Shown: piece by piece, positions 3,404 to 64,000 of the stretch
Layout of the letters: each line of letters starts with the position of its first letter
How positions within the stretch are numbered: position 1 is the first letter of the stretch
NCBI GenBank assembly: GCA_963692525.1
Contig: OY829953.1
Location: 3,908,720-3,972,719, forward strand
DNA length: 64,000 nt
Source of the DNA: Opitutales bacterium
GTDB lineage: Bacteria > Verrucomicrobiota > Verrucomicrobiia > Opitutales > PNEW01
Direction of reading: 5' to 3'
The notes under the pieces: model-generated
The model's input: the letters and a program-made list of their open reading frames with translations, nothing else
What the model was told of the DNA's origin: nothing
The model's database searches: none
Made by a program: the position numbers and the translations under genes

Positions 3404-3478
3404 CTTCGTCTTCGTCCTCTTTTTCCACAGCTTGCTATAACACGGACGAAGAGACTGACGTGGACGTAGACGAAGATT
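3404..3478. mobile_element. Shortest family-A element (75 bp, termini only)
   Basis: CTTCGTCTTCGTCC at the left end and GGACGTAGACGAAGATT at the right end are inverted copies. The right 37 nt match the right ends of the 14449-14802 and 26405-26820 elements. It sits 19 nt after the stop of the upstream gene. Confidence 0.55.
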
Positions 3479-3551
3479 AAAAATATAAACTTATTTGGAT
3501 CTTAATTCTTTATTTTATAAATTCGCGCTCTACTATTCGGTTTCAATTCGC

Positions 3552-4331
3552 ATGGAATTATCCTGTTGTATATGGGCCCTCAGCGGGCCGGAAGAAAAAG
3601 TATTAACTCAGATCGCCAACGCGGGTTTCAGTTGTATTGATCTTCAACCCTTTGTCTTTAATCCTGAAGACATTCAAACGCGTATTCATCACCTCAATCT
3701 TCAGGTTTCTTGTCTCGCCGCATCTTTTGGCATCCAAGAAGGCGTAGCACTCGATAGTGAGGACCCGTCTTCAACTGCCCAGGCGTTAGCCTATACCGGA
3801 AAGGCCCTTGAATATGGTAAAAATCTCGGTGCTAAAGTCGCCTACCTCGTACCGGGCGCAGATGGGAGTCCTGAGGCCCACTCCCGCTATGCGCGTTCAT
3901 ATTCCACCCTTGCCGATCAGGCTTCCACACTCGGATTAAAACTCTGCATCGAACACTTTCCCGGCAGTGCATTCCCAACCGCCTCTGCAACACTCAACTT
4001 TATACGGGGCATCGATCATCCCAATCTCTATCTTCTTCTCGATATTGGGCACACACAAATATCTAACGAAGACCCGGCCGAAGTCATCGCCTCCGCCGGA
4101 CCCAAACTTGGATATGTCCATTTGGACGACAACGACGGCCAAGGCGATTTACACTGGGCCCTGACGGACGGAGTCCAGACTGAAAATTCTCTTCGCCAGA
4201 CCTTTGAGGCGCTTGAAAAGATTCAATATAGTGGACCCGTCAGCCTGGAATTGAGCGCGAAACTGACCAATCCTCTCGATGCGTTAATACGCAGCAGAGA
4301 ATTGGTCCTAAACTTTGCATCGTTTAGTTAG
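3552..4331 (+). CDS. Sugar phosphate isomerase/epimerase (xylose isomerase-like TIM barrel)
   Basis: Family-typical motifs CIEHFPGS, LLLDIGH and YVHLDDNDG are present. The ORF track starts at TTG 3495; I prefer ATG 3552 (MELSCC...). Confidence 0.75.
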   Translation: MELSCCIWALSGPEEKVLTQIANAGFSCIDLQPFVFNPEDIQTRIHHLNLQVSCLAASFGIQEGVALDSEDPSSTAQALAYTGKALEYGKNLGAKVAYLVPGADGSPEAHSRYARSYSTLADQASTLGLKLCIEHFPGSAFPTASATLNFIRGIDHPNLYLLLDIGHTQISNEDPAEVIASAGPKLGYVHLDDNDGQGDLHWALTDGVQTENSLRQTFEALEKIQYSGPVSLELSAKLTNPLDALIRSRELVLNFASFS

Positions 4332-4916: not shown

Positions 4917-5978
4917 ATGAAAAAAAATAATCCCTTCTCTGGACTGGATATCACCGCGGTCTATGGACTCCTATTCCCCGCATTATTCCTTCTCTTCATC
5001 GGGCACGGCTTCGCGGGTGAAAAACCGGAAGGTGACCCGTCAATCCTGTCACCCGGAGCTGAATTAGAGTTATTGTTTAGCGACACCTTTTTTGCTGAGG
5101 GTCCCGCCGTTGCACGCGATGGATCCGTTTACTTCAGCGATATTACCTTTACCTTCAGATCTAACATGCAGGCAGGGCGTATCTGGAATTATAATCCGGA
5201 AACCGGAATCACAAAGATATTCCGCTCCCCTAGTGGCATGTCCAATGGAATCAAGTTTGATGCGCGGGGAAGGATGATCGTCGCGGAGGGCGCAGATTAT
5301 GGCGGTCGCCGTGTTACGCGCACCGACCTGACGACCGGGAAGACTGAAATCATTGCAGGCTTATATCAGGGTCGACCTTTTAATTCGCCTAATGATATCG
5401 CGATCGACGAAAAGGAACGTATTTATTTTAGCGACCCACGGTATCTCGGGCATGAACCGATTGAACAACCCATCATGGGAGTCTATCGCGTCGATCCAGA
5501 TGGAACGATAGAATTAATCGTAACGGATGCGGGCAGACCGAATGGCATCGCAATTTCACCCGATCAGAAATCACTCTATGTAGTGAGCAATGATGATGGT
5601 TCACTCGGCTTTGATCGCCTGCCTGAAGACACCGTTTATCATAAAGGACGCATGGCTCTCTTGGCTTACGATCTTTCCGAAGCTGGCACGGCTTCCTTCA
5701 GAGAAGTCCTTGTCGATTACTCTCCACAAGATGGACCCGATGGTCTAACGGTCGACGTTGAAGGTAATCTCTACGTCGCGGTACGTGATTTAACAAGGTA
5801 TGGAATTTATGTCTACACGCCCACAGGAAAGGAATTAGCATACATTCCCACTCCACAGGTACCAACAAATGTTGGATTTGGCAGGGGGCAGGAAAGCAAC
5901 ACGCTTTATATTACCGCTGAATCAGATCTCTTACGAATAAAGGTAAATAAGAAAGGTTACCAACTTCCTCCTCGGTAG
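4917..5978 (+). CDS. SMP-30/gluconolactonase/LRE-like lactonase, secreted
   Basis: It has a signal peptide and repeated propeller motifs (AEGPAV, SNGIKFD, PNDIAID, PNGIAISPD, PDGLTVD). Confidence 0.8.
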   Translation: MKKNNPFSGLDITAVYGLLFPALFLLFIGHGFAGEKPEGDPSILSPGAELELLFSDTFFAEGPAVARDGSVYFSDITFTFRSNMQAGRIWNYNPETGITKIFRSPSGMSNGIKFDARGRMIVAEGADYGGRRVTRTDLTTGKTEIIAGLYQGRPFNSPNDIAIDEKERIYFSDPRYLGHEPIEQPIMGVYRVDPDGTIELIVTDAGRPNGIAISPDQKSLYVVSNDDGSLGFDRLPEDTVYHKGRMALLAYDLSEAGTASFREVLVDYSPQDGPDGLTVDVEGNLYVAVRDLTRYGIYVYTPTGKELAYIPTPQVPTNVGFGRGQESNTLYITAESDLLRIKVNKKGYQLPPR

Positions 5979-11714: not shown

Positions 11715-11970
11715 ATTCTTCGTCACCGTCTTCGTCTGCCTTTTCGTCTTTTATTTTTTAGCTGGTTTTAAGTAAAATATTCTTACAATCCAAGGTGGAG
11801 CGGGCTGCGATTCGGCTGAGCTCATCGAAGTCCTGTCCGACATAGCCTTGGCGACGGCTGATCCCTAGCACGCTTCTTCAATTACGACTTTCTCAAACGC
11901 GCTAGGGACAGCGCGTTCCACCTTTATATATTAAAGAATACTTACGATGAGGCAGACGAAGACGAAGATT
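11715..11970. mobile_element. Family-A element, 256 bp, filled form
   Basis: AATTCTTCGTC...CTTCGTC on the left and GACGAAGACGAAGATT on the right. The interior is GGTGGAGCGGGCTG + 54-nt core module + CCCTAGCACGC...GCGCTAGGG hairpin + CAGCGCGTTCCACC. It lies between convergent genes. Confidence 0.6.
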
Positions 11971-14448: not shown

Positions 14449-14802
14449 CTCTTCGTCTGCCTCTTAGTCTTCGTCCCAGACGCCCTAATACTTCATGATT
14501 ATTGTAGCTTAAGATGGAGCGGGCTGCGATTCGGCTGAGCTCATCGAAGTCCTGTCCGACATAGCCTTGGCGACGGCTGATGCATAGCACGCTCCTTCAA
14601 CTACAACTAACTTAAACGCGTTAGGGATCAGCCATCCTGGAGGGCCACGCTCCTGCCTGTCCGACATAGCCTTGGCATCGGCTGATCGTGGCCGTTAATA
14701 ACATTTCAAAGCGGACGCAATGGAATGCGTCCCTCCATTCCTTATAAAATAATAGGATCTCTATAACAGACGAAGAGCCTGACGTGGACAAAGACGAAGA
14801 TT
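14449..14802. mobile_element. Family-A element, 354 bp long form
   Basis: CTCTTCGTCTGC on the left and GACAAAGACGAAGATT on the right. It is nearly colinear with 26405-26820, including the GGAGGG-GGCCACG...CGTGGCC-GGACGCAatggaaTGCGTCC-CTCC module. Confidence 0.6.
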
Positions 14803-14824
14803 AGTAGAGCTGCCGCCTCACCGC

Positions 14825-22423: not shown

Positions 22424-22541
22424 GGGCAAAGGGGCAAAAAGATGTCATCGATATAACAGGTGTTTGATCAATTATTTCAGGTGGGGTTGCATTAAAATTA
22501 TTCCAATTGTAGCACGAAGCTCTATTTTCCATCTCTAAACA

Positions 22542-22573
22542 TTTTGACTTTTTGACCTTTTGACTTTTTGACT
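22542..22573 (+). repeat. (TTTTGACY)4 octamer array
   Basis: ttttgact ttttgacc ttttgact ttttgact, ending 8 nt before ATG 22582. It is identical to the array at 34291-34322. Confidence 0.9.
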
Positions 22574-22581
22574 TAACAACA

Positions 22582-26404: not shown

Positions 26405-26820
26405 CTCTTCGTCTTCGCTTGCCACGTCGTAGACTTCTGCGAAGACGGGTATGCCTTCATCGTCTTGTAGGTTACACCTTGATACTTCATAAATATTGTA
26501 GCTTAAGGTGGAGCGGGCTGCGATTCGGCTGAGCTCATCGAAGTCCTGTCCGACATAGCCTTGGCGACAGCTGATCTCAAGCACGCTTCTTCAATTACGA
26601 CATAATTAAACGCGCTAGGGACAGCGCGTTCCACCTTAATATTGCCATAGAAATATGGAGGGCAACGCTCCTGCTTGTCGGCCATAGCCATGGCGTCGGC
26701 TGATCGTGGCCGTTGACAACATTTCAAAGCGGACGCAATGGAATGCGTCCCTCCATTCCTTATAAAATAATAGGATCTCTATAACAGACGAAGAGACTGA
26801 CGGGGACGAAGACGAAGATT
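26405..26820. mobile_element. Family-A element, 416 bp, longest copy
   Basis: CTCTTCGTCTTCGC on the left and GACGAAGACGAAGATT on the right, with all modules present (see findings). ORF-track entries 26285..26584 and 26503..26727 lie inside it and are not credible. Confidence 0.65.
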
Positions 26821-27127
26821 AATAGAATACACACCCCTCCGGGGCTTAGTTAAAGCTCCCCTCGTAACAGGGCAGAAGTGTGCGTGGCTAGTTTTTAATA
26901 GCGCTTCGACCTAAGTATAATCGGAAGAGTGGATGGGTGGATTATTTCCATCAGTCAACATCCAGTCTTCCAAACTTCTATCCATCCACTTTCTTTTATT
27001 ACACCTTCACCCGGATAGCCAGTCCTGGAATAATAAGCACCGAATTACCTCTTATTATATAAAGAAAGAAAGATTCAGGAATAACATGAAAAGTGCCTGA
27101 TATTGTTAACTTAAAATAAATACTGAA

Positions 27128-34108: not shown

Positions 34109-34266
34109 GATGGAACGCGCTGTCCCTAGCGCGTTAGTTATAAGTATTAATAATAGAAGCGCGCTGAGGACCAACATTCGCCAAGGCTATGGCAGGCAGG
34201 ACTTCGATGAGCTCCCTTCGGCATGAGCTCAGGGCCGAATGCAGCCGAATCGCAGCCCGCTCCACC
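34109..34266. repeat. Family-A core in inverted orientation, long-insert variant, no terminal repeats
   Basis: GATGGAACGCGCTGTCCCTAGCGCG ... CGCAGCCCGCTCCACC, carrying the extra TTCGGC/GCCGAA hairpin variant also seen at 63920-63965. Confidence 0.7.
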
Positions 34267-34290
34267 TAAAACGCGTTCGCGTCTTCAACG

Positions 34291-34322
34291 TTTTGACTTT
34301 TTGACCTTTTGACTTTTTGACT
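34291..34322 (+). repeat. (TTTTGACY)4 octamer array
   Basis: The same 32-mer as 22542-22573, located 76 nt upstream of ATG 34399. Confidence 0.9.
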
Positions 34323-34398
34323 TTTATCATATTACCCTCGGTTTGAAAAATACCGGGATATATATTTTATTAATAAATATGATGAAGGAGATTAAAGA

Positions 34399-35448: not shown

Positions 35449-35560
35449 GGTGTCCCTACCGCGTTTAATAGTTACATTGAGTTAAGAAGCGCACTGAGAT
35501 CAGCCGTCGCCAAGGCTATGTCGGACAGGACTTCGATGAGCTCAGCCGAATCGCGGCGTG
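35449..35560. repeat. Family-A partial element (inverted orientation, G/C hairpin allele)
   Basis: GGTGGAACGCGGTGTCCCTACCGCG ... ATCAGCCGTCGCCAAGGCTATGTCGGACAGGACTTCGATGAGCTCAGCCGAATCGC. Confidence 0.7.
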
Positions 35561-35632
35561 TTTTATTTTTGACAAAGATTGGGAGGAAGATGTCATTCAA
35601 ACCAAATTCTTATTTTCTTCACCGCATACACG

Positions 35633-35691
35633 CATTTGAGGATATCGGGCTTCGCCCTCGGCACGCTTCACCGCATTCACGCATAACCGCC
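35633..35691 (-). repeat. C unit (GTGCCGAGGGCGAAGCCCGATATCCTCAAATG on the minus strand) with flanking homology
   Basis: It matches 50201-50232 and 59361-59392, and ends 12 nt before ATG 35703. Confidence 0.8.
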
Positions 35692-37807: not shown

Positions 37808-37835
37808 ATTTCTCAGCCTGTTTCTTGCAACCCAA

Positions 37836-37995
37836 GGTGGAGCGGGCTGCCTGACCGCCATAGCCTTGGCGTCGGCTGGTTCCCTAGCACGCTTCTTCAT
37901 TTACGACTTCATACAACGCGCCGAAGATCAGCCGTCGCCAAGGCTATATCGGAGAGGACTTCGATGAGCTCAGCCGAATCGCAACACGTTCCACC
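37836..37995. repeat. Family-A core, fully palindromic form with a core module on both arms
   Basis: GGTGGAGCGGGCTGC + CCATAGCCTTGGCGTCGGCTGG + central hairpin + ATCAGCCGTCGCCAAGGCTATATCGG...GAGCTCAGCCGAATCGC + GTTCCACC. Confidence 0.7.
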
Positions 37996-38085
37996 ATGAT
38001 CCTATATTAAATAAGCGGGACGAAAGGGAATCACCCCTTACGCCCCTTAGTTTAAACTTAAAAACTGCTAACTATTTCCTACGCC

Positions 38086-41673: not shown

Positions 41674-41838
41674 GTCAAAAGGTCAAAAAGGGAGGAGCGC
41701 TGATGCGCGTATTAAATTATAAGATAATTAACTTTATACAAGCATTGCTACTTTTTACTGATCACTGATAAATGATTTCTGTCTAGACATCCTGCATCAT
41801 CCAACGTTTTGACCTTTTGACTTTTTGACCTTTTGACT
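41674..41838. repeat. Inverted pair of octamer arrays flanking a 116-bp AT-rich core
   Basis: (GTCAAAAR)2 at 41674-41689 and (TTTTGACY)4 at 41807-41838, lying between convergent genes. Confidence 0.85.
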
Positions 41839-46279: not shown

Positions 46280-46338
46280 CTGGAGGGCCACGCTCCTGCC
46301 TGTCGGCCATAGCCTTGGCGTCGGCTGATCGTGGCCGT
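46280..46338 (+). repeat. Solitary core-in-stem module
   Basis: CTGGAGG-GCCACG-ctcctgcc-TGTCGGCCATAGCCTTGGCGTCGGCTGAT-CGTGGCC-GT, identical in plan to the internal modules at 14638-14696, 26655-26713 and 61319-61378 (inverted). Confidence 0.8.
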
Positions 46339-46438
46339 AGACTTTAAAATACGATTTACCTTTTAATGTATACACTTCGTGCTGTTATATTAACATTTTA
46401 CGAGAGAAGAACCGTTTTTAAAAAAAGGAACCCGAACA

Positions 46439-48073: not shown

Positions 48074-48330
48074 GGCCAGAGAGCCAGAAAATCGGAAAGC
48101 CAGCGAGAAGGAACAAGTGATTCATGACGTTGTATAAGAAGCGTGTCGGGGGAGCCAGCCTTCCTTGTTTAGTCTCAGACTACATCGATTAATCAGACAG
48201 TCCGACTATCTGGTCCTCTGGTTTGGTAGATGTCGTTCCACGACTGCGGAACTCGGTACTGACTTTCCGACATTCCGGTTTTCCGGTATTCTGGATTTCT
48301 GGATTTCTGGCCCTCTGGTTTTCAGGATGT
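48074..48330. repeat. Composite low-complexity/palindromic intergenic block including a D unit
   Basis: GCCAGAGAGCCAGAAAATCGGAAAGCCAGC on the left is answered by TTCCGGTTTTCCGGTATTCTGGATTTCTGGATTTCTGGCCCTCTGG on the right. The D unit at 48210-48261 matches 59431-59482. Confidence 0.7.
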
Positions 48331-49598: not shown

Positions 49599-49674
49599 GT
49601 CAAAAGGTCAAAAAGTCAAAAGGTCAAAAAGGAAATGCGATTAAGCTTTTGACTATTTGACCAGTACCTTTGAC
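49599..49674. repeat. Inverted octamer arrays filling the gap between two cistrons
   Basis: (GTCAAAAR)4 at 49599-49630 starts 6 nt from the ATG (49592, minus strand). The degenerate CTTTTGAC TATTTGAC ... CTTTGACC at 49646-49674 abuts the upstream stop at 49675. Confidence 0.85.
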
Positions 49675-50139: not shown

Positions 50140-50145
50140 ATATCA

Positions 50146-50296
50146 GTCAAAAGGTCAAAAAGTCAAAAGGTCAAAAGGATATGCGTGAACGCGATTAAGC
50201 GTACCGAGGGCGAAGCCCGACATCCTCAAATGTGGAAATAACTTTCACCCTTAAACTTTTTGACCTTTTGACCTTTTGACCTTTTGACCTTTTGAC
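50146..50296. repeat. Inverted octamer arrays flanking a C unit
   Basis: (GTCAAAAR)4 at 50146-50177 starts 6 nt from ATG 50139 (minus strand). The C unit is at 50201-50232 and (CTTTTGAC)5 at 50256-50296. A GCGAC aagg GTCGC hairpin follows. Confidence 0.9.
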
Positions 50297-53186: not shown

Positions 53187-53711
53187 TTATTCTTTTTTCC
53201 TTTGCAGCTCTTTTTGATAAAGCGCCGTTCCATAAAATTCATAGGATGCCGCAGCATCCGGAACATCCACGACGTGGACTGTGAAACGAGAAGGTAAACC
53301 GTTATCTGGTAAATATTCCTGAAAGAAATTCCGGTAGGCATAGGCTTCGCGCAGCCTTTTTTGTTCAGCTGCGTATCCCTCAGGGTCGACAAGTGGATTT
53401 GGAGATTTCGGTTGGCAACCAAAGGCATGAATTTCAATAAAATCTACTTCCTTCAATGAATCACAGATCCCTGCATCGATCAGCCATTTCTCCCAGCACT
53501 TGAATACAAGGGGAATTTCTTTCTCCGGATCCATTGAAACGAGTTCGTCTCTTTCTAATACTGCTTTCGCTGAATACCCTCCGGTCAATCCTGAAAAACA
53601 GATCTTCAGATCTCCATCCGGAAGTGCTTCCGTTACAAGAGAAGACAAAACAGCTTGATCCCCTTCATAATAATAAGTCAACTTTCCACGCTTTTTTATC
53701 TTAAATGCCAT
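53187..53711 (-). CDS. Hypothetical protein
   Basis: A 174-aa ORF. No family was recognised. Confidence 0.45.
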   Translation of the reverse strand: MAFKIKKRGKLTYYYEGDQAVLSSLVTEALPDGDLKICFSGLTGGYSAKAVLERDELVSMDPEKEIPLVFKCWEKWLIDAGICDSLKEVDFIEIHAFGCQPKSPNPLVDPEGYAAEQKRLREAYAYRNFFQEYLPDNGLPSRFTVHVVDVPDAAASYEFYGTALYQKELQRKKE

Positions 53712-53874
53712 GACCGAGTAATGTTTATTTAAGACTATTCTTTACTGTGTTTAAATCCTTATCTTTGAAAGGTTCTTTATTTTTAAATAGACCTTTATCT
53801 TCCTCTAAAATTTAGCAATCTATATAGTGTAAGTTATATACGAACGAATTCGAAGATTAAAAATTCAAGCAAAT

Positions 53875-54075
53875 CACCCCAGCGGGGTGTAACATTCGTA
53901 GCCCGCAGCGTAAGCTGTGGGTTAAAATATGTGCCATATAAATTAAGCCCCAGCGGGGCGACACAATAACCGTCGAAAGCGATGTTGTGTCGCCCCGCTG
54001 GGGCTCTGAATTATAAAATATCACTCCCACCCACAGCTCACGCTGTGGGCTAAACCTATGCCGCCCCTCCGGGGC
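53875..54075. repeat. Mirror-symmetric array of five hairpins
   Basis: CACCCCagcGGGGTG (53875-89). CCCGCAGC-GTAA-GCTGTGGG (53902-21). A 20-bp perfect stem, GCCCCAGCGGGGCGACACAA / TTGTGTCGCCCCGCTGGGGC (53947-54004). CCCACAGC-TCAC-GCTGTGGG (54030-49). GCCCCtccGGGGC (54063-75). Confidence 0.85.
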
Positions 54076-54206
54076 TGATAGAGTACGTTAAGGATAAGTT
54101 TTAACATCTTCCTTTTTACATTAATTCGTAAGTATCTAACAGTGATGAGGGGGAAGCCGATGACCAAGATAACCGTGATTATACTTTGCCTTAATGCCTT
54201 TTATAA

Positions 54207-55079
54207 TCAGCCTTTAAGGGCGCCGGCGGCAACACCTTTAACAATCTGCCTTTGGAGTATTACATAAAAGAGAAGTGTGGGGATGAGCACTAAGACGAGT
54301 CCCGCAAAACAAACTCCCCAGTCGCTGCGATATTGTGATGTAATCGCAATATTTGCCAGGCCCAGGGGCAGGGTCCGAATACTTTCACTGCCTTCACCGG
54401 ATAGAAACATGTAGGCAATGAAGTACTCATTCCAGAACGAGAGAAAGGTAAATATAGCCACCGTTACGAGACCGGGACGGGCGAGCGGCAACATTATGCT
54501 CCAGAAAATCCGCCATTCACTACAACCGTCAATTTGTGCGGCTTCGTGAAGCGATCGGGGTAATGTTTTAAAAAAACCTGCGAGGATAAAGATGGCAAAG
54601 GGCAGTCCCCCGGCAATATAGACAAGGGTCAGGCCGAAACGTGAATTAAGTAACCCCCACTCGCGCATTTGAAAAAAGAGAGGAATGATCGACAATTGCA
54701 CGGGTATCATGAGCCCGGATAGAAAGAGGTAAAACATTACCGTCCCACCGGGAATACGAAATCGGCTCAGGGCATAGGCTGCCATCGATGCAAGCATCAG
54801 GCAGAGAGTGAGCGCGCAAGCCGTTACGAGAGCGCTATTGAGAAAATACTGCGAGAAATGGGCGCCAACCCAGGCACGCTCAAAGTTTTCCCATTGCAGA
54901 TTATTCAGATCGGGAAGGGCAAAAGGTTCGATGAATATCTCCTGGTCCGTTTTTAAAGCTGTGTAGTTCATCCATATCAAAGGATAAACAACCACGATAA
55001 GATAACAAAGGAGCACGCTGAAAATCAGCATCTTCACGATCGGTTCAAGGAATGGCTTTTTGCCCGGTCTGGTTTTCAT
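54207..55079 (-). CDS. Carbohydrate ABC transporter permease (MalG/UgpE-like)
   Basis: Six TM helices and the EAA loop EAAQIDGCSEWRIFWSIMLPLARPG. There is a 4-nt overlap with the upstream gene. Confidence 0.85.
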   Translation of the reverse strand: MKTRPGKKPFLEPIVKMLIFSVLLCYLIVVVYPLIWMNYTALKTDQEIFIEPFALPDLNNLQWENFERAWVGAHFSQYFLNSALVTACALTLCLMLASMAAYALSRFRIPGGTVMFYLFLSGLMIPVQLSIIPLFFQMREWGLLNSRFGLTLVYIAGGLPFAIFILAGFFKTLPRSLHEAAQIDGCSEWRIFWSIMLPLARPGLVTVAIFTFLSFWNEYFIAYMFLSGEGSESIRTLPLGLANIAITSQYRSDWGVCFAGLVLVLIPTLLFYVILQRQIVKGVAAGALKG

Positions 55080-57355
55080 TGATAGACCTCCGTTGTCTCC
55101 CGTTTCATCAATCGCAGCGTAACCATCGCGCCAAAGAATACTAAGATAAATAATAGGACCGCGATCGCCGTCGCCTGACCTACCTTAAATTCCTTAAACA
55201 TCGTGGTAACCATATAGGTGGCCATGACATGCGTATTCGAAGTCGGCCGTTGGCTGGTCAGTAGCCAGATATATTCAAACGTTTTTAACCCGCCGATAAC
55301 CATGAAAACCGCGGATATCGTCAGCGCTTCCCAGATCTGCGGTATGGTAATGAAAATAAACTGTTGCCAGGTGGTAGCACCATCGATCGACGCCGCATCG
55401 TATAAGGCAGTGTCCACGTTTTCCATTGCGGCGAGGTAGAGAATCATGTTAAATCCGCAAGCACCCCAGATCGCGATCGGAATGAGCGACCAGTATAAAT
55501 GTTCCTGTGACAACCAGGGGAAATTTTCAAACTGTGTAAAGCCCAGCCCGACAAGCGCCCCATTAACCAGTCCACCCTGGGGATCGTAGGCGTTCATCCA
55601 CAAAAGGGTGATCGCGATGGCTCCCATGATATTGGGAAAGAAAAAACAGATGCGAAACATATTGCTGCCCCAGACCCGTCGGCTGATAAGAAAGGAAATG
55701 GAAAGCGCGATCGGAATGACAAAAAGAGGCGGAACAAACATGACGAATAAATTATTTTTAAGCGCCTTCCAAAATACATCGCTCTCAAACAGAAGTCGTT
55801 TGAAATGCAGCAATCCCACATACTCTCGATCCGTAATTCCATCCCACCGGGTAAAGGCCCAGACAAAAGATTCCAACGATGGTTTAATGGAAAAGACCAG
55901 ATACATCACCATCGCCGGTCCTATGGATAAAAGCACATAGCGCGCATTCAACTTGCCCGGAGAAAAACTGACCGACTTTATTTTTTTCCTCGCTTTAAGC
56001 TCGATGTAAATCGTGTATACAAAAGCGGCTACTATAATGAAAACAAGAAGAGATCCAGCCATGGTATGACGATAGACCACTTGATTTGGGTTTATACTGA
56101 TGAACCTTTCTTTTTCTGCCGCTGCTTCGAGAAAATCACCGAATTCTTCGGGAGAAATTTCATTATACATGAGCATCGCCCGCGCGTCTTCTTCTGCTTG
56201 ACCCATCCCAGGATAAGGGGGTGTTGAGCCAAATGGGGTACCATAGGTAGCCGTTGAGTTTTCAATGATCAATGCCACATCATGCATCAGCGGTGAGTAG
56301 CTTTCCAGAGGTGTTCCGATGATCGCGGTAGAGGCATCCCGCCTTTCGGTGAAAGTTTTTGCCCATCGCCGGGAAGTCATGTAACGAAAAAAATCAACTG
56401 TTACGTCTATATTTTCCACCTCATTAAAAAGGAAGAAATAACCGCTTCCGGCCTGGACCGCATTCCGGGAGCCTATTCCCTCTGGGAAAACAGGCATATT
56501 AAATGCCCCGAGCTCAAATTCCTCAGGAATTTTACCTGTCATTTCGCTCACCATCCATGAACCGTTGGCGATCATCGCGCTATTGCCTTGAAAAAACTGT
56601 AATTGGGAACCGGTGTGACTCATACCTTCCCACCCCTCCTGGAAATAATGGGTGGCAAGCCGCTGAAGAATCCCCGCGGCTTTTTTGAAGTGAGGATTGG
56701 AACGCGTCCCTTTCTCGAGAAGATTATAACGTCGATACGCATCCGGCCCCACCAGGTTGTAATAAGCCGCTCTTAAAATCATATCGCCATAGCTCATGTA
56801 AACACCGGGGAAAGCGAAGGGCGCAATATTGACTGCTTTGACTTGGTCGCAGAGGCTGAACAGCTCATCCCAGGTTTGAGGAATTTTCCATCCATTATCT
56901 CTGAACAGGGTTTTGTTATAAAAAATCACCCTCGTGGCATAGGCAAAAGGGACTGCCCAAACATGCTCGCCGTCTTGCCAATGCTCAAGTGCCCCAGGAA
57001 GAAAAGTATCACGCCATCGGGCATCGCCTTCCCAATTCGGTCCTTCCAGGTAGGGCCCCAGGTCAAGAATTTTCCCCGCTTGAATTAAGTTATACCATGC
57101 CGAGTCTGCTGTTGTCGCGTTAGGATAATTACCTTCAATGACACGAATACGCACCTGATCCGGCATACGTGGATCGCCGTAAAGATTGATCTTAACACCG
57201 GGATGTTCTTTCTCATAGGCGCGCGCGACATCCTGATATATTTTGACCCCATACCCACCCTCGAAAATGGGAATATCAATCTCAATGGGCTCTTCGGCAA
57301 AGAGCGTGTATGCAAAAATCAAAGTGAGGGTGATTGTGATTACTTTGATTTTCAT
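55076..57355 (-). CDS. Fusion: extracellular solute-binding protein (family 1) + linker TM + ABC permease (MalF/UgpA-like)
   Basis: ATG 57355 gives a signal peptide (MKIKVITITLTLIFAYTLFA). About 430 aa are SBP-like, followed by one extra TM (SLLVFIIVAAFVYTIYI), then a permease with the loop YDAASIDGATTWQQFIFITIPQ. The ORF-track TTG at 57379 is probably an extension. Confidence 0.75.
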   Translation of the reverse strand: MKIKVITITLTLIFAYTLFAEEPIEIDIPIFEGGYGVKIYQDVARAYEKEHPGVKINLYGDPRMPDQVRIRVIEGNYPNATTADSAWYNLIQAGKILDLGPYLEGPNWEGDARWRDTFLPGALEHWQDGEHVWAVPFAYATRVIFYNKTLFRDNGWKIPQTWDELFSLCDQVKAVNIAPFAFPGVYMSYGDMILRAAYYNLVGPDAYRRYNLLEKGTRSNPHFKKAAGILQRLATHYFQEGWEGMSHTGSQLQFFQGNSAMIANGSWMVSEMTGKIPEEFELGAFNMPVFPEGIGSRNAVQAGSGYFFLFNEVENIDVTVDFFRYMTSRRWAKTFTERRDASTAIIGTPLESYSPLMHDVALIIENSTATYGTPFGSTPPYPGMGQAEEDARAMLMYNEISPEEFGDFLEAAAEKERFISINPNQVVYRHTMAGSLLVFIIVAAFVYTIYIELKARKKIKSVSFSPGKLNARYVLLSIGPAMVMYLVFSIKPSLESFVWAFTRWDGITDREYVGLLHFKRLLFESDVFWKALKNNLFVMFVPPLFVIPIALSISFLISRRVWGSNMFRICFFFPNIMGAIAITLLWMNAYDPQGGLVNGALVGLGFTQFENFPWLSQEHLYWSLIPIAIWGACGFNMILYLAAMENVDTALYDAASIDGATTWQQFIFITIPQIWEALTISAVFMVIGGLKTFEYIWLLTSQRPTSNTHVMATYMVTTMFKEFKVGQATAIAVLLFILVFFGAMVTLRLMKRETTEVYQ

Positions 57356-57375
57356 GCAATAAAAACTTTCAATAT

Positions 57376-58401
57376 TCAATTTGTGGCAAGGCCGTTGATT
57401 ATATGTGCGATACCATTCACCACGCGCGCCATCCGGGGATAGTCAATCTTGTCCGGTGTATCAGCCGGCGTGTGGTAATAATCATAACGGAAAAGCGCGG
57501 TGTCGGTTATCATAATTGCAGGGTAGCCGGCCTTCCAAAAAGACCAATGATCCGACCACCCTACCCCGGTTACCCATCCAGGTGCCGCGGTCCCTTCGGA
57601 GGGAAATGGTGTATTTTCCCGAAAAGTAGCAATCGCCCGTCGCACCAAACCACGCGATGAAAGATTTCCGACAAAGCCGATGAAATTGGCAACATTCGGA
57701 TAAAAGAAACTAAAAGGAAAGGGATATCGCTGGCTGCCCACTTCATCTGAGTAATAGCCGATCGTTTCAAGTGAAAGCATGGCGATAATTTTTTCACCGC
57801 GCTGCCTGGAACGGGTCGCGTAAACAAGGCTCCCCATTCGAGAAGTCTGGAAGAAGGGCGGTTCTTCATTAACGAATGCGACAAAGCGGACGGTCCGGGA
57901 TAGTTTATTATTAGACAGGAGACGAGCTGCTTCAATTAGCCCTGCAACCCCAGAGGCATTATCGTTAGCGCCGGGACAACCACTGACCGAATCATAATGA
58001 GCACCGACAATGATAATTTCGTCGGGTAAGGTTGTTCCTGATAACTCAGCTTCAAGATTAGTCACGGTTACACCATCAACCTTGTATGCTTGTTGTTTTA
58101 CCTCGTAACCTAAATCGGTAAACGCTTCTTCAATGTAATTCGCAGAAGATATTAAGCCCTGATATTGCCAGACATTTCGCTCCCCTATCTTTTTCGCCAG
58201 GATGTTTAAATGTTTTTCAAGCTGACGACGCGTAATTTCCTCATCATCAGATAGCGGTTGAAAAGGGCCTGAATAAGAATTTTTTGGCATCCAAACGACG
58301 TATAATATAAATGTGGTCAGAATTATAATAATAATCGTTATTTGTATGAGCAACATATACCACTTACTAGAGATCTTTAGGGCTATATAAGCCGAAATCA
58401 T
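57376..58401 (-). CDS. M28 family metallopeptidase, membrane-anchored
   Basis: N-terminal TM, then IIVGAHYDS, GANDNASGVAGLIEAAR, FVAFVNEEPPF and SDHWSF motifs. Confidence 0.85.
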   Translation of the reverse strand: MISAYIALKISSKWYMLLIQITIIIIILTTFILYVVWMPKNSYSGPFQPLSDDEEITRRQLEKHLNILAKKIGERNVWQYQGLISSANYIEEAFTDLGYEVKQQAYKVDGVTVTNLEAELSGTTLPDEIIIVGAHYDSVSGCPGANDNASGVAGLIEAARLLSNNKLSRTVRFVAFVNEEPPFFQTSRMGSLVYATRSRQRGEKIIAMLSLETIGYYSDEVGSQRYPFPFSFFYPNVANFIGFVGNLSSRGLVRRAIATFRENTPFPSEGTAAPGWVTGVGWSDHWSFWKAGYPAIMITDTALFRYDYYHTPADTPDKIDYPRMARVVNGIAHIINGLATN

Positions 58402-59279: not shown

Positions 59280-59535
59280 GTCAAAAAGTCGAAAAGTATA
59301 CGCGTACCGAGGTCGAAGTCCGACATCCTCACATGCGTTTAAGCGGTTATGCGATAAAGAGTGCCGAGGGCGAAGCCCGACATCCTCAAATGGGAATAAG
59401 CGGATACTGCTATGAATTTCCTGCAACACTCTGACCTTCTGGCTTGGAAGATGTCGTTCCGCGAATATGGAACTCGGAACCGGTTCTCTAGCCTTCCTGC
59501 ATAAATCCGCAATCGCATATCGCAAATCGACAATT
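59280..59535. repeat. Mosaic of octamers, two C units, a D unit and AATCCGCAATCG motifs
   Basis: GTCAAAAA GTCGAAAA at 59280-59295, C units at 59304-59335 and 59361-59392, the D unit at 59431-59482, and AATCCGCAATCGCATATCGCAAATCG at 59507-59532. It fills the whole gap between convergent genes. Confidence 0.85.
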
Positions 59536-61197: not shown

Positions 61198-61545
61198 ATA
61201 ATCTTCGTCTGCGTCTTTAATAAGGCTCCTTAGAAATGGAGGGACGCACGGAGCATGTCGGCCATAGTACCGCAACAGCGAAGACGACGGCTGATTGCGT
61301 CCGTTTGACAAGATGGTTACGGCCACGATCAACCGACGCCAAGGCTATGGCCGACAGGCAGGAGCGTGGCCCTCCAGGCGACGGCTGACCCCAAGCGCGC
61401 TTCTTCATTTACAACTCACTTAAACGCGCTAGGGACCAACCTTCGCCAAGGCTATGGCTGGCAGGACTTCGATGAGCTCAGCCGAATCGCAGCGCGTTCC
61501 ACCATGATATTATAGTTAATGATTGGACAGACGAAGACGAAGATT
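61198..61545. mobile_element. Family-A element, 348 bp, inverted module order, with an extra nested core
   Basis: AATAATCTTCGTCTGCGTC on the left and GACGAAGACGAAGATT on the right. The GGACGCA/TGCGTCC hairpin carries a 47-nt core-like insert in its loop. Confidence 0.6.
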
Positions 61546-61581
61546 TCAATTACTCAATGCCTTATTCTGGCATATTTCCAT

Positions 61582-62688
61582 TCAAAAATCATTATCACTC
61601 TCGAGCATTGAAATAGATAAGGGAGTACCCTTCCTTTCTCCATGCATCATAGCGACTCGCTGACATAGGGGAGTCAGTTGGCTTGCGATATATTTTGCTC
61701 CCTCATTATTGGGATGAAATCCATCTGGAAAAAAGAACCCGTATGAATTCGGTGAATCGTAATCCATGTCCTTTAAATTGAGAACCATTGCATCTTTATA
61801 AAATTCATCACGAATTTTATTATTATAGCTAAGAATACCACTTAACCGCGGCGCACGATTGGATACAGGAGGTAAGATAAGAATAATTTCGGTATTGTGT
61901 TCACTTGCCGCGGTGACAAAAGTTTTAAAATTAGCAATCGCATCCTCCATCGGAACTCTCACATTCTTATTAATCTGAGAATGTTGGCCGGCAGGTTGTT
62001 TTATGTACGTTTGATAAAGTGATTCGAATGCGAGGTAAGTGTGAGTTTTTTGAATCCATTTAAGAGGAGCGGCATGAGTAAACTGCAAGAGGTTTAGATA
62101 CTGGTTGTCAGTTAAGAGGGGTGTTTCCCAGATATCATTCCATCCAAAGTAAATAATGAGGAGATCCGGGTTGACCTTGGAAAACCACCTATCGAATACA
62201 ACTTTTCCTTGACTGCTGCTGTAGCCGGGCTGCGAAAAGTTGTAGACTTTAAATGCACCTGACTGTTCACCTAATCTCTCTTCCAATATCGACTGAAACG
62301 TAAGGCGATAATCTAAAATGCCCCAACCAAAAGCACACGAGTCTCCAAGGATCATAACCTTTGTCTCATTATCACTATGCAGATTTGGATCATAAACATT
62401 ACCGCGAAAGCCTAAAGCGTTAATACCCGTATAGCCCTGAATCGGTTCTCCTGATGGATTTTGCTGAACGTGAAATAATAAGCCAGCATCAGGATGTGAG
62501 AGCTCATTTTCTCTCAATGTATATTTTATCGTGCTGGGAATGTTACTTGCCGCATAAGCGGGTAAACCAAGTTTGCGAAAATTGATATAGAGTGGTCGGG
62601 CAAAAAAACAGGTTAACTCAAGACCTCCAAAAAAGAGCCCAACAACGATGGCCGCAAAAAACATCCTCTTCTTTAAAGAAAAGTTCAT
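61582..62688 (-). CDS. SGNH/GDSL hydrolase, membrane-anchored
   Basis: ATG 62688 is preceded by AGGAGG. It has an N-terminal TM, then ILGDSCAFGWG (block I), GWND and DGFHPN (block V). The ORF-track start at 62772 is probably an extension. Confidence 0.8.
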   Translation of the reverse strand: MNFSLKKRMFFAAIVVGLFFGGLELTCFFARPLYINFRKLGLPAYAASNIPSTIKYTLRENELSHPDAGLLFHVQQNPSGEPIQGYTGINALGFRGNVYDPNLHSDNETKVMILGDSCAFGWGILDYRLTFQSILEERLGEQSGAFKVYNFSQPGYSSSQGKVVFDRWFSKVNPDLLIIYFGWNDIWETPLLTDNQYLNLLQFTHAAPLKWIQKTHTYLAFESLYQTYIKQPAGQHSQINKNVRVPMEDAIANFKTFVTAASEHNTEIILILPPVSNRAPRLSGILSYNNKIRDEFYKDAMVLNLKDMDYDSPNSYGFFFPDGFHPNNEGAKYIASQLTPLCQRVAMMHGERKGTPLSISMLESDNDF

Positions 62689-63068
62689 TTGCCTCCTCTT
62701 TTCCTGATCACCTGAAGTACCTTTATCACGATTGGGAACACCAGGTTTATAATCTCTGTATTTTAGTGCCATTCTTCTTTATATTACACTGCTACACTTA
62801 CTGTAAATTCGGATAAAATTCATTTGCAGTGGTTAGTCTCTCAAAACGAACTAATTTTCTGTATAATTCAATGTCATTTTTTTTCTAAAGTGCAATATTA
62901 GAAAATTGACTCCCGCCTGACACTTTGAACCTGTCTCTTAACTCTTAACACTGAATAATTTAATTTTTTTCACTTTTTCCGGGAAGAAAATGGTGCGTCA
63001 CGGCTCTAAGTTTATAATTCAGTGTTTTCGTACATTGTTAACTTATAAACAAACACATACTTATAAAT

Positions 63069-63440: not shown

Positions 63441-63484
63441 AACTAAGCTGAATGGTGTTAGGATAGAACGTATGGATTTGTCGT

Positions 63485-63692
63485 ATTAGTCTTCGTCTCT
63501 GGCTAATATAGATTATCTTGCAATCCATGGTGGAGCGGGCTGTCCCTAGCACGCTTCTTCAATTACAACTTAATCAAACGCGCTAGGGACAGCGCGTTCC
63601 ACCTATCTATTCTATTAATAACTGGATGGACGAGGAGGCTGACCCGTCTTCGCAGTAGTCTACGACGTGGCAAGCGCGGACAGAGACGAAGA
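63485..63692. mobile_element. Family-A element, empty form (no core module)
   Basis: ATTAGTCTTCGTC on the left and GACAGAGACGAAGATG on the right. The interior GGTGGAGCGGGCTG-TCCCTAGCACGC ... GCGCTAGGGACAGCGCGTTCCACC is an uninterrupted 26-bp-arm palindrome. Confidence 0.6.
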
Positions 63693-63727
63693 TGATTGTT
63701 ATACATAGCAGTGAATCAAGCGCGGGC

Positions 63728-63811
63728 CACCCCGGAAGGGGTGAAGGTAAATAGCCAGGGGTTTTAAACCCCTGGTACAATGATTATAATATAAGCGCCC
63801 TGAAGGGGCGC
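63728..63811. repeat. Three GC-rich hairpins
   Basis: CACCCCggaaGGGGTG (63728-43), CCAGGGGTTTtAAACCCCTGG (63755-75) and GCGCCCtgaagGGGCGC (63795-811). The CACCCC...GGGGTG-type first hairpin and overall plan match the 53875-54075 family. Confidence 0.8.
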
Positions 63812-63861
63812 AGGCATTCTGATTACCCTGAAGTTTTGGTTAGAGCGTATGGATTCGTCAT

Positions 63862-64000
63862 ATTAGTCTTCGTCTCTGGCAAATATAGATTATCTTGCAA
63901 TCCATGGTGGAGCGGGCTGCGATTCGGCTGCATTCGGCCCTGAGCTCATGCCGAAGGGAGCTCATCGAAGTCCTGTCCGACATAGCCTTGGCGACGGCTG
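63862..64000. repeat. Family-A element, filled form, truncated by window end
   Basis: The same 85-nt left part as 63456-63542, but GGGCTG is followed by the long core module (CGATTCGGCTGCATTCGGCCCTGAGCTCATGCCGAAGGGAGCTCATCGAAGTCCTGTCCGACATAGCCTTGGCGACGGCTG). Confidence 0.7.

Follow-up and report, generated by a model that had tools for sequence, protein, structure and literature searches.

Our main finding is that a palindromic array of hairpins, located between two genes in the 64,000-nucleotide stretch of DNA analyzed here (the window), is very probably a gene-less derivative of an element encoding an IS200-like Y1 transposase (HUH, subclass 1.2), similar in kind to a REP doublet (BIME or REPIN) or a MITE. 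As the same arrangement brackets an IS200-like transposase gene elsewhere, the array is most likely a relic of mobile DNA devoid of its gene, and not a small-RNA gene or an operon terminator. Direct support comes from the homology of the parts, an architecture shared across phyla, the systematic flanking of Y1 genes and a sharp C-T boundary, and also from the lack of target duplications and the polymorphism in presence and copy number at the window locus.

Structure of the array

The segment 53875-54076 is an imperfect palindrome of 202 nt composed of five GC-rich hairpins (Table 1). A sequence-only reading of this DNA had described a five-hairpin array here, and every hairpin was recovered at its place. 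Folding of 53860-54090 gave -124.9 kcal/mol on the plus strand and -129.4 kcal/mol on the minus strand, compared to about -67 and about -73 kcal/mol in shuffled sequences (z-scores of -13.4 and -12.9, respectively). The central hairpin has the perfect stem and the 18-nt loop attributed to it, its stem being 21 bp long and not 20. The outer pairs are indeed inverted, diverged copies of one unit, with stems kept and loops varying: the outer arms (53877-53922 and 54029-54074) are complementary at 74% across 46 nt. The repeated unit, announced as about 55 nt long, turned out to be the 46 to 47 nt unit of an Rfam family. The G-to-A change noted in one stem is confirmed on the plus strand, where the fourth pair reads G.T in the hairpin at 53902-53921 and A-T in that at 54030-54049; a G.T or A.C departure recurs at this pair across units.

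Within the window, CCCCNNNGGGG occurs 6 times for 0.63 expected (6 or more in 0 of 100 shuffles), and the pattern of an 8-bp stem with a 4-nt loop has 4 matches for 0.34 expected. The tag situated 5' of the Y hairpin reads GTAG in the left copy and TTAG in the right one. The arms of the central stem are two inverted 3' half-units, each made of a linker and an X-type mini-palindrome, and our own model, R1, partially matches the central hairpin at 53974-54005 (plus strand) and 53947-53968 (minus strand). Between its arms the element is free of ORFs and contains only the 18-nt loop. Translation of the element yields recurrent peptides, PTAYAVGY for example. The stop codon of the ABC permease gene lies 130 nt away.

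Table 1. Position of the array, its parts and the neighboring features in the window
Feature	Position	Strand	Remark
Isolated X-type hairpin core, CCCC-TCC-GGGG, 11 nt past a family-A terminus	26834-26844	+	Pattern match
Downstream flanking gene, 174 aa, without family match	53187-53711	-	176-aa gene in the assembly annotation
Degenerate family-A right terminus (ACGAACGAATTCGAAGATT), outside the hairpin element proper	53840-53858	+	86% identity to 3464-3484
Left Acido-Lenti-1 unit, degenerate: X hairpin, linker, Y hairpin	53875-53921	-	Without terminal C-T
X hairpin, left outer, CACCCC-AGC-GGGGTG	53875-53889		
GTAG tag, adjoining the left Y hairpin at the 5' side of its foot	53898-53901	+	Sequence reading
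Y hairpin, left, CCCGCAGC-GTAA-GCTGTGGG	53902-53921		
Left spacer, 24 nt, AT-rich, unconserved	53922-53945		
Central hairpin: perfect 21-bp stem (53946-53966/53985-54005), 18-nt loop (53967-53984)	53946-54005		
Right spacer, 24 nt	54006-54029		
Right Acido-Lenti-1 unit, intact: Y hairpin, CTAA, linker, X hairpin, terminal C-T (54075-54076)	54030-54076	+	
Y hairpin, right, CCCACAGC-TCAC-GCTGTGGG	54030-54049		
X hairpin, right outer, GCCCC-TCC-GGGGC	54063-54075		
Second degenerate stretch like a family-A terminus (GAAGCCGATGACCAAGATAACCG), same orientation as 53840-53858	54153-54175	+	
Upstream flanking gene, ABC transporter permease	54207-55079	-	Pfam BPD_transp_1, E = 2.3e-21
Solo half-element: diverged unit (63728-63775), spacer, further X hairpin (63797-63811)	63728-63811	-	

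The outer units belong to the Acido-Lenti-1 family

In a whole-window scan, the right unit matched the Rfam family RF01687, Acido-Lenti-1, with 44.5 bits (E = 8e-7), for a gathering score of 37 bits. The left unit obtained 22.8 bits, which is below the gathering score, so that it fails alone; with R1, the right and left units scored 45.8 and 24.4 bits (E = 1.7e-4 for the latter). The right copy displays all the features of the family, namely a first hairpin (8-bp stem, 4-nt loop), about 12 nt of linker and a second hairpin (5-bp stem, 3-nt loop), and the left copy displays them except for the terminal CU. The family and the window units thus share two hairpins, a 12 to 13-nt linker and the near-invariant CU.ACG, GGCUA and terminal CU, a conservation that goes beyond the GC content of stems. 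A permissive scan of 53700-54250 for other Rfam families gave, for the central hairpin, only chance-level microRNA and rRNA matches.

Rfam describes RF01687 as a 46-nt gene for a small RNA, with no function assigned, found in Acidobacteria and Lentisphaerae and sometimes near group II introns. It was first reported as a likely RNA, showing covariation and not cis-regulatory (Weinberg et al. 2010, PMC2864571). This reported closeness to group II introns led us to consider attC sites of integrons and target hairpins of DGRs. Both were set aside as improbable: the array has perfect stems and shows no R/L box pattern, and neither an integrase nor a reverse transcriptase lies nearby.

Our observations differ from the Rfam description in several respects. 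What appears to be the functional unit is not a 46-nt small RNA but a palindrome, some 200 nt long, whose central hairpin is conserved; its range extends into Verrucomicrobiota and Planctomycetota; a Y1 transposase gene has its units as ends; and the strand favored by wobble pairs is opposite to the annotated one. Indeed, non-Watson-Crick pairs are A.C in 38 cases versus G.U in 8 in the seed, and A.C in 27 versus G.U in 11 in the new units. The loops, which had been qualified as GNRA-type, are mostly so across the family when read on that other strand (47 of 70 seed sequences, 149 of 190 new units). The published seed itself contains arrays and alternating orientations, one whale-fall contig having a minus and a plus unit separated by 106 nt.

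If the current Rfam typing were followed, the array would consist of two genes for small RNAs, and each of its 46-nt units would act in trans. Such a pair seems to us highly improbable, despite the original call and the covariation of the stems, which is present in the seed and in the new units. Covariation is equally expected of a DNA hairpin recognized by an HUH enzyme, and the wobble asymmetry speaks against the annotated strand. Moreover, the units are found in inverted doublets or arrays, apparently in many copies per genome and without a promoter or terminator of their own, they bracket transposase genes at fixed distances, and from one close relative to another a copy may be there, missing or duplicated.

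A composite element conserved across phyla

A genome scan with the Y-hairpin pattern identified at least 120 loci in MAGs of Acidobacteriota, Verrucomicrobiota and Planctomycetota, and of a few other phyla. Being a member of RF01687 with loci in several phyla, the unit is not confined to the three loci of the window where the array and its relatives had been noticed. Among the matches listed, 67 of 80 neighboring pairs of full units have a minus-then-plus layout, the other three orientations totaling 13, and the gap between minus and plus units is mostly 80 to 141 nt (108 nt for the window pair). Also among the matches listed, nearly all element centers contain long hairpins homologous to that of the window, with arms AGCCCC-NNN-GGGGCG.AGA, and several MAGs contribute at least 3 to 5 loci each; in about 79 kb of the window's genome, three loci bear elements. 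Homologous central arms of the type AGCCCC-NNN-GGGGCGACAGA directly bracket Y1 genes at other loci. CTAC, which is GTAG on the other strand, is found 3' of the Y hairpin in 106 of 195 units.

The two spacers of an element match in length, typically 15 to 33 nt (about 55 elements compared), and their complementarity to one another is 0.52 compared to 0.44 in controls. Palindromy of the whole element as one long duplex was rejected on this ground: since the spacers are barely complementary beyond controls, the conserved parts are three hairpin modules at fixed spacing. An all-against-all BLASTP of the ORFs within 3 kb of 64 elements revealed no gene family present at more than four loci.

The gene context bears on the possibility that the array acts above all at the RNA level, at the 3' ends of genes, as a terminator that works in both directions whatever its orientation or as an mRNA stabilizer, the palindrome offering the same hairpins to transcripts from either side. 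Crude gene calls place 19 elements in convergent, 21 in tandem and only 6 in divergent contexts (40 of 46 convergent or tandem), and several are within about 20 nt of both neighbors. On the strand that reads toward the center, non-Watson-Crick pairs are mostly G.U-compatible and loops are mostly GNRA, and such RNA roles have been reported for REPs (PMC3733652). A consensus scan for intrinsic terminators, however, gave none on the plus strand and two weak sites on the minus strand, along which the ABC operon runs (53959-53947, with TTAATTTATA after it, and 53889-53875, with ATTTGCTTGA after it); a count of 2, for 1.2 in shuffles, makes an intrinsic terminator improbable. Most copies have no U-tract after their hairpins, a G.T wobble is equally tolerated in single-stranded DNA hairpins, and a close relative has the same two genes only 51 nt apart, free of any element. 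The sequence-only reading had raised the question of a terminator for the ABC operon; with no U-tract on the plus strand, weak sites on the minus strand and a relative lacking the element, this finds no support as the primary role of the array. An origin at the RNA level, which would leave unexplained the flanking of Y1 genes, the sharp C-T boundary and a tandem duplication in one relative (L208), is in our view unlikely, and a 3'-end function is best seen as a possible secondary role and not as an alternative origin.

Association with a Y1 transposase gene

By reading the ORFs between widely spaced units, we located a Y1_Tnp gene between a minus unit and a plus unit at three loci (L034, L045 and L117), and partial versions of this unit-flanked gene at two others (L114 and L115). 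The encoded protein scores 87.7 bits on PF01797 and 71.9 bits on the NCBIfam IS200/IS605 model (cut-off 55), and fails the REP_Tyr_transpos model NF047646 with 21.2 bits for a cut-off of 80; its PDB matches are IS200/IS605 TnpA proteins only, the nearest being those of ISDra2 and IS608. The associated proteins are 148 to 150 aa long and carry the motifs DHVH, WQ and YI..Q..HH, the Y motif being read as YIRDQEKHH. A regular-expression search for Y1 transposases with H.H ... Y..[NQ]P gave no match, because the proteins of the element have YI..Q..HH.

As an independent test set, we took 80 metagenomic loci picked solely by similarity to the Y1 protein. A minus unit was found at most 160 nt upstream of the Y1 gene at 64 of 77 protein-selected loci (median distance 47 nt), and a plus unit downstream of it at 67 of 73 (median 55 nt); both flanks carried units in 54 cases out of 70, and neither flank in 1 out of 70. 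The minus unit is on the left and the plus unit on the right irrespective of the orientation of the Y1 gene. Arms of the long hairpin adjoin its start and stop codons, which places the gene inside the hairpin loop; GGAGG is present in the left arm, and the hairpin covers the ribosome-binding region of the transposase gene. The window halves, the halves of gene-less copies and the flanks of Y1 genes align collinearly. The half-elements are inverted and about 90 nt long, and the arms that meet in gene-less copies are those that adjoin the start and stop codons in gene-bearing ones.

Neither the window with 15 kb of its flanks nor the orthologous loci gave any Y1 homologue in a tblastn search (E <= 1). 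A protein encoded at the edge of the window (61582-62772) is without a database record.

Boundaries and the orthologous site

Conservation stops abruptly after the terminal C-T, the C being present in 128 of 130 cases and the T in 126 of 130. No target-site duplication was detected, direct repeats in the flanks averaging 1.05 compared to 1.30 in shuffled pairings. In close relatives, the orthologous site is empty in L204, with the same two genes separated by 51 nt, occupied by a single copy of the element in L206, and by a tandem duplication in L208. Compared with the empty site, the indel amounts to about 440 nt. As it spans stretches similar to family-A termini and AT-rich DNA, the insertion is not cleanly attributable to the hairpin element alone.

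Relation to the family-A repeats

The hairpin loci had been proposed to be physically linked to family A, and this was partly borne out: all three in the window lie 11 to 45 nt from a GACGAAGAT-type family-A terminus, and in orthologous loci the terminus is intact and co-duplicated with the array (GACGAAGACGAAGATTAAAAATTCAAGC, at the position orthologous to 53840-53858 in L206 and L208). Of the roughly 13 family-A termini of the window, though, only 3 are accompanied by hairpins, and about 10 are not. The stretch at 54153-54175 probably corresponds to a better preserved TAATCCTCGTCTTCGTCTTC on the other strand of L206 (3409-3428), judging from its sequence. Of the two related arrays proposed earlier, the one at 63728-63811 is a true half-element, collinear with the window halves (19.7 bits with E = 0.0025, and 10.5 bits, with R1) and lying exactly between two family-A copies (63458-63700 and 63835 onward). 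The other, proposed at 26834-26870, amounts to a single X-type hairpin whose core (26834-26844) has no R1 match, and its kinship to the element is uncertain.

The array might then be an internal or terminal module of a larger composite bounded by GACGAAGACGAAGATTA termini, and not an independent element. To the proximities just given one may add the terminus-like sequences on both sides of the array, both included in the duplicated block of L208. Yet besides the many hairpin-free termini, the element occurs in at least three phyla beside unrelated sequence, with no conserved flank and with family A not seen there, and co-location is also expected if the two share permissive intergenic sites or if one repeat targets the other. 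We give very little credit to such a composite.

Comparison with known mobile elements

REP sequences and their BIME and REPIN arrangements, known with their RAYT genes from Enterobacteria, Pseudomonas and Stenotrophomonas (PMC3333891, PMC3116915, PMC3733652), have in common with the element a GC-rich hairpin with a 5' GTAG (GTRG) tag, an organization in inverted doublets (with spacers of 20 to 100 nt for REPs), and a location mostly between convergent and tandem genes; the many extragenic copies of REPs may also have a counterpart here. In REPtrons, as here, a Y1 HUH gene is flanked by inverted copies of the repeat. The E. coli TnpA-REP enzyme depends on the GTAG tag as well as on a mismatch in the stem, its cleavage sites being GGCC|TAC and C|T (PMC3333891); a conserved C-T (the cleavage site of TnpA-REP), a recurrent stem mismatch and no target duplication characterize both systems. 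Unlike REPs, the units of the element contain two hairpins and the doublet adds a third, long central one; hairpin sequences are near-identical across phyla, whereas REPs are lineage-specific; and the associated protein is IS200-like (Y---Q--HH, class 1.2), in contrast with class-2 RAYTs (Y---NP).

The proteins found between units match the signature of TnpA-Y1 subclass 1.2 (DH[IV]H, WQ, YIKNQKEHH; median 148 aa; Quentin et al. 2018, PMC6006769) by their DHVH, WQ and YI..Q..HH motifs and their length. Published members are low-copy, generally without terminal secondary structures, not associated with REPs, and mostly from Cyanobacteria and Bacteroidetes (PMC6006769), whereas the relatives found here, in soil, peat and freshwater metagenomes and in PVC and Acidobacteriota MAGs, are mostly flanked by structured inverted repeats.

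Like IS200/IS605 elements (IS200, IS608, ISDra2), the element has hairpin-bearing ends and makes no target duplication. In IS200, too, a hairpin is reported to lie over the ribosome-binding region of the transposase gene. Classical members such as IS608 and ISDra2 have similar hairpins on the same strand at both ends and are not known to carry terminal inverted repeats, whereas the ends of the element are inverted copies of about 90 nt; the window element is also without the TnpA gene, which its relatives carry elsewhere.

TIRtrons with their TIRYT proteins (Di Nocera et al. 2013) and class 3 TnpA-Y1 systems (PMC6006769) come close: they combine Y1 genes from the same phyla with inverted, partly double-palindromic flanks, and their repeats are also encountered as gene-less families of moderate abundance (Solibacter usitatus has about 600 copies). 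The proteins differ, with an NP-type Y motif in the TIRYT aba1552 and NHVH and YV..EQ in class 3, and so does the foot motif, published as CnGA for class 3 in Planctomycetes and Acidobacteria versus GTAG here; GTAGCCC, CCCACAGC and GCTGTGGG were not found in the supplements of Di Nocera et al. MITEs, finally, are like the element short, non-coding and inverted at their ends, arise from autonomous elements by gene loss and fold into long hairpins. Unlike a MITE, the element has no target-site duplication, and its parent enzyme is an HUH Y1 and not a DDE transposase.

Proposed mechanism and significance

As we read it, the full element begins with an outer Acido-Lenti-1 unit, made up of the X hairpin, a linker, the GTAG tag and the Y hairpin; it continues with some 22 nt of spacer and one arm of the long hairpin, then the gene for a Y1 protein of 148 to 150 aa, followed by the identical parts in mirror order. 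As the Y1 gene is absent from the window copy, the two arms meet there as the perfect 21-bp hairpin with its 18-nt loop. By analogy with E. coli TnpA-REP, the Y1 enzyme may recognize the GTAG-tagged Y hairpin as single-stranded DNA and cut at C|T, and such cutting would mobilize or amplify gene-less copies in trans. Given that the ends of classical IS200/IS605 elements are not inverted, a mechanism with inverted ends is an extrapolation. The window copy, the left end of which is degenerate, is probably no longer mobile. Elements at the 3' ends of genes may, like REPs, secondarily serve as RNA hairpins, as barriers to read-through or stabilizers of 3' ends; any role as a terminator or in a 3'-UTR would be secondary.

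Whether Acido-Lenti-1 represents the DNA ends of an unrecognized REPtron-like system of TnpA-Y1 subclass 1.2, by a link both real and undescribed in the literature, is to us an evenly balanced proposition. It offers a concrete and testable account of an Rfam family that was catalogued in 2010 as an orphan small RNA and has been without an assigned function for 15 years, and it suggests that both the type (small RNA) and the strand of RF01687 be reconsidered. For annotation, the elements should be masked as repeats instead of being called RNA genes or spurious ORFs. The proposal also suggests a DNA substrate for an orphan subclass of HUH Y1 proteins. The design of the element is compact and symmetric: each end bears two tagged hairpins, the C-T boundary is sharp, and the gene is lodged in the loop of a hairpin that covers its ribosome-binding site. 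This makes it a handy natural model of how hairpins are recognized by HUH enzymes, proteins that serve as tags for coupling DNA to protein. If the proposal is true, gene-less doublets have made their way into Acidobacteriota, Verrucomicrobiota, Planctomycetota and Lentisphaerota, and REP-like repeats have been reached by a second, independent route, from the IS200 side and not from that of RAYTs. REP-like systems would then exist beyond RAYTs and Proteobacteria, which would bear on the origin of domesticated transposases and of the repeats associated with them.

Architecture and identity of the array

The sequence at 53839-54075 agrees with the five-hairpin array described in the sequence-only reading, and its central stem is indeed perfect, at 21 bp rather than the 20 bp given there. 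Two minus-strand genes, 495 nt apart, flank the array, whose features are above chance as judged by repeat-motif counts (CCCCNNNGGGG occurs 6 times in the window, 0.63 expected), hairpin-pattern counts (4 matches in the window to the 8-bp hairpin pattern, 0.34 expected) and fold energies (53860-54090 forms one long hairpin on either strand, at -124.9 and -129.4 kcal/mol, z near -13).

The repeated unit is a known Rfam family, Acido-Lenti-1 (RF01687), first described by Weinberg et al. (PMC2864571). The only above-threshold match in an Rfam scan of the window is RF01687 at 54030-54076 (plus; 44.5 bits, gathering score 37); a permissive scan added the inverted copy at 53875-53921 (minus; 22.8 bits). 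In the Rfam seed alignment, units already occur in tandem and in alternating orientations, and in one case a minus and a plus unit are separated by 106 nt. Run on the window without filters, a covariance model rebuilt from 69 distinct seed sequences recovered both outer units and a third, diverged unit, and gave partial 3'-half matches on both central-stem arms. From these unit and half-unit matches, the array consists of two half-elements, each about 90 nt long, joined head to head. Each half runs from an arm that bears a small hairpin, through a spacer of 24 nt and the large hairpin, to a linker and a second small hairpin. Two further loci had been taken for related arrays: 63728-63811 is a solo half-element, and 26834 has one small hairpin only and no covariance-model match in the unfiltered window search.

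Table. Coordinates of features (window positions unless a locus, L, is named)
Feature	Position	Strand	Remarks
Outer inverted arms	53877-53922 / 54029-54074		46 nt, 74% complementary; repeat finder
Central perfect inverted repeat	53946-53966 / 53985-54005		21 bp, 18-nt loop; repeat finder
Two 8-bp/4-nt-loop hairpins	53902-53921, 54030-54049		repeat finder
Four CCCC-NNN-GGGG cores	53877, 53948, 53993, 54064		repeat finder
Direct-repeat families D2, D3			central-stem arms each resemble outer small hairpin + linker; repeat finder
Third, diverged unit	63728-63775	-	own model 19.7 bits, E 0.0025; further small hairpin at 63797-63811
ABC permease	54207-55079	-	flanks array
174-aa protein, no family match	53187-53711	-	flanks array
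Variant-centre doublets	L005 3179-3260, L007 2410-2489, L070 1061-1143, L111 1261-1342
Family A copies	11777-11962, 14496-14814, 26490-26832, 34141-34266, 35454-35584, 37819-38012, 46280-46342, 61304-61551, 63458-63700, 63835-64000
Octamer arrays	22539-22580, 34288-34329, 41805-41837, 49599-49630, 50145-50176, 50255-50296
Short …CGTACCGAGGGCGAAGCCCGACATCCTCAAATG family	35622-35690, 50177-50232, 59283-59403

Conservation across phyla

A pattern scan for CCCRCNGCTNACGCNGYGGGCTA in one genome per species yielded at least 120 loci, which among the matches listed belong to MAGs of Acidobacteriota, Verrucomicrobiota, Planctomycetota and a few other phyla; our covariance model made 257 matches in the loci listed (at least 120). 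Among the matches listed, 67 of 80 neighbouring full-length units follow a minus-then-plus layout, the other three orientations totalling 13, with a gap of mostly 80-141 nt (108 nt in the window) that in nearly all minus/plus loci contains a long near-perfect hairpin. Among the same matches, the arms of this hairpin read AGCCCC-NNN-GGGGCG(A/G)(A/C)AGA and its complement, its loop measures between 3 and 77 nt, and an element's spacers match in length (typically 15-33 nt) but are unrelated in sequence. What would be the loops of local small hairpins are exact complements between arms (GGA/TCC, GGCA/TGCC; AGC/GCT in the window). No recurring neighbour protein family was found at the loci among the matches listed (largest cluster, 4 of 64), where crude gene calls place 19 elements between convergent, 21 between tandem and 6 between divergent genes.

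A minority of doublets carry a different central hairpin (CCCCTCTCCCGC … GCGGGAGAGGGG) in place of the AGCCCC…GGGGCT arms, pointing to a second subfamily among the composite elements. Translation of units in high-GC genomes (L002-L201) gives recurrent pseudo-peptides (…PTAYAVGY…, …HGVSRG…, …SPLRGY…) that inflated ORF predictions and formed a spurious 'protein cluster' across loci.

A Y1 transposase gene inside the central-hairpin loop

Inspection of ORFs where paired units lie unusually far apart revealed, at locus L034, a 148-aa protein whose gene has a minus unit (5327-5373) on one side and a plus unit (5912-5958) on the other. It contains the motifs HLVFSTKDR, DHVHLLL and YIRDQEKHH, and scores 87.7 bits with Pfam Y1_Tnp, 71.9 bits with the NCBIfam IS200/IS605 transposase (cut-off 55) and 21 bits, under the cut-off of 80, with the NCBIfam REP-associated tyrosine transposase; the nearest solved structures are ISDra2 TnpA and IS608 TnpA. 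Its motifs and length match those published for TnpA-Y1 subclass 1.2 (Quentin et al. 2018, PMC6006769). Homologues 48-56% identical occupy L045 and L117 in the same minus/gene/plus order, with the gene in either orientation, and L114 and L115 hold partial versions.

As an independent test, a metagenome collection was searched by protein alignment alone, 80 loci were kept of 540 confirmed relatives, and the RNA covariance model was run on them afterwards. A minus unit lies at most 160 nt upstream of the Y1 gene in 64 of the 77 loci with enough flank (median 47 nt) and a plus unit downstream in 67 of 73 (median 55 nt); units stand on both sides in 54 of 70 loci and on neither side in 1 of 70. 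The 45-55 nt separating unit from gene correspond to spacer plus central-hairpin arm, the left arm containing GGAGG and ending a few bases 5' of the ATG, the right arm coming after the stop codon. Since the arms adjoin start and stop codons, the Y1 gene occupies the central hairpin's loop, and the window element has this structure minus the gene. In an alignment, the window halves and the 63728 half are collinear with an orthologous locus, with gene-less halves found in other phyla and with the sequence 3' of Y1 genes. No cognate Y1 gene was found in the window, in 15 kb of its flanks (L209, L210) or at the orthologous loci.

Long one-sided unit arrays adjoin some Y1 genes (L123 841-1454, where as many as ten minus-strand units follow one another at intervals of about 71 nt; L045 1858-2902) and resemble the Lentisphaera araneosa tandem arrays of the Rfam seed.

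Signatures of mobile DNA

At both ends of 65 elements, conservation is lost sharply after a terminal C-T (C in 128 of 130, T in 126 of 130), positions beyond it holding about 0 bits. Flanking direct repeats are not longer than in shuffled pairings, and thus there is no target-site duplication. On the complement of the Rfam-annotated strand, the tetranucleotide GTAG stands 5' of the large hairpin in 106 of 195 units among the matches listed (53898-53901 in the window). Non-Watson-Crick pairs in Rfam orientation are mostly A.C, that is, G.T or G.U on the GTAG strand (A.C versus G.U, 38 versus 8 in the seed and 27 versus 11 in new units); they concentrate at stem pair 4, where the left window copy carries exactly the G.T. 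The GTAG tag, pair-4 departure and terminal C-T parallel E. coli REPs, for which TnpA-REP requires a 5' GTAG and a stem mismatch and cuts inverted REPs at GGCC|TAC, with C|T as its cleavage site in other places (PMC3333891). PVC bacteria are reported to have GTAG-tagged REPs that form inverted dimers, contain structured spacers and prefer sites between convergent or unidirectional genes (PMC3733652).

The locus in close relatives

Orthologous loci were reached via homologues of the window permease, whose best named homologue is from a Verrucomicrobiae MAG (73%), a match that points to the phylum at most. The element is absent from L204 and L205 (permeases 93% identical), where 51 nt separate the permease from a 176-aa gene; L202 and L203 (98%) lack both element and 176-aa gene; L206 and L207 (91%) have the same single element. 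In L208 (93%; 3400-4200, contig ERZ25766727 ctg355743_4x_l), sequence is duplicated in tandem at a period of about 390 nt. The duplicated block contains the five-hairpin element, together with a family-A terminus and an extra unit whose stems differ (CCCATTGC-TGAC-GCAATGGG); this is evidence that repeats have recently driven rearrangement here. Absent, single or duplicated among relatives, the array is a variable insertion and no conserved operon part. The indel relative to the empty site, about 440 nt, also includes family-A-like termini and AT-rich sequence, so that the event is not attributable to the hairpin element alone.

The gene 5' of the permease (55076-57379, minus) encodes a 767-aa fusion of SBP_bac_1 solute-binding and BPD_transp_1 domains, kept in relatives at 759-767 aa and, in L202, divided between two products of 685 and 75 aa. 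The window's contig also carries an IS110-family transposase gene, about 8 kb to the left of the window (L209 1-703; DEDD_Tnp_IS110 and Transposase_20). Some IS110-family elements insert into REP-like hairpins.

Family A and other repeats

Copies of family A are abundant between genes and measure roughly 150-340 nt. The repeat has a core, GAGCTCATCGAAGTCCTGTCCGACATAGCCTTGGCGACGGCTG, sometimes present twice per copy, and inverted-repeat-like ends (TAATCTTCGTCTTCGTC ... GACGAAGACGAAGATTA); it has no Rfam match at the gathering threshold and may be a MITE of another kind. Its proposed physical linkage to the hairpins is real locally, given that all three hairpin loci of the window abut a family-A terminus, that the terminus beside the array, degenerate in the window, is intact in orthologues, and that the half-element at 63728-63811 sits between two family-A copies. 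However, only 3 of about 13 GACGAAGAT-type termini in the window have element-type small hairpins 11-45 nt after them, and no conserved flank surrounds the hairpin element at other loci. We take the linkage to mean that two repeat families share locations or target each other, not that they form one element.

The octamer TTTTGACC / TTTTTGAC, repeated 3-5 times in tandem, forms arrays that adjoin genes, one (50145-50176) ending 5 nt ahead of the start codon of a minus-strand gene at 50139; these arrays could be promoter or 5'-leader elements. Beside them, in both orientations, occurs the short …CGTACCGAGGGCGAAGCCCGACATCCTCAAATG family with a small GC hairpin. A 68-nt sequence with an internal hairpin (GTCGTTCCACGACTGCGGAAC…) is present twice (48209-48276 and 59430-59497, 74% identical).

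Status and proposed mechanism

REP-like repeats around Y1 genes are of a known kind, these phyla included: TIRtrons (Di Nocera 2013) and class 3 (Quentin 2018, PMC6006769). In the searchable literature, incomplete and without figures, we found neither Acido-Lenti-1 as the ends of a Y1 element nor its assignment to subclass 1.2, the five-hairpin architecture with a gene in the hairpin loop or the cross-phylum spread; any of these may therefore have been described before. The inverted ends differ from those of classical IS200/IS605 elements and the associated protein is not a RAYT, so the element is assigned to neither family.

The window copy has a degenerate left end (22.8 bits, no terminal C-T) and is probably an inactive relic. 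Between the ABC operon and the gene that follows it, the element may have a secondary role in RNA, blocking read-through or stabilising 3' ends; weak terminator-like sites lie on the operon's strand. The best-supported reading of the array is a gene-less, REPIN/MITE-like element derived from one that encodes a Y1 transposase. By analogy with TnpA-REP and IS608, the GTAG-tagged hairpin would be recognised as single-stranded DNA, cleaved at C|T and mobilised in trans.
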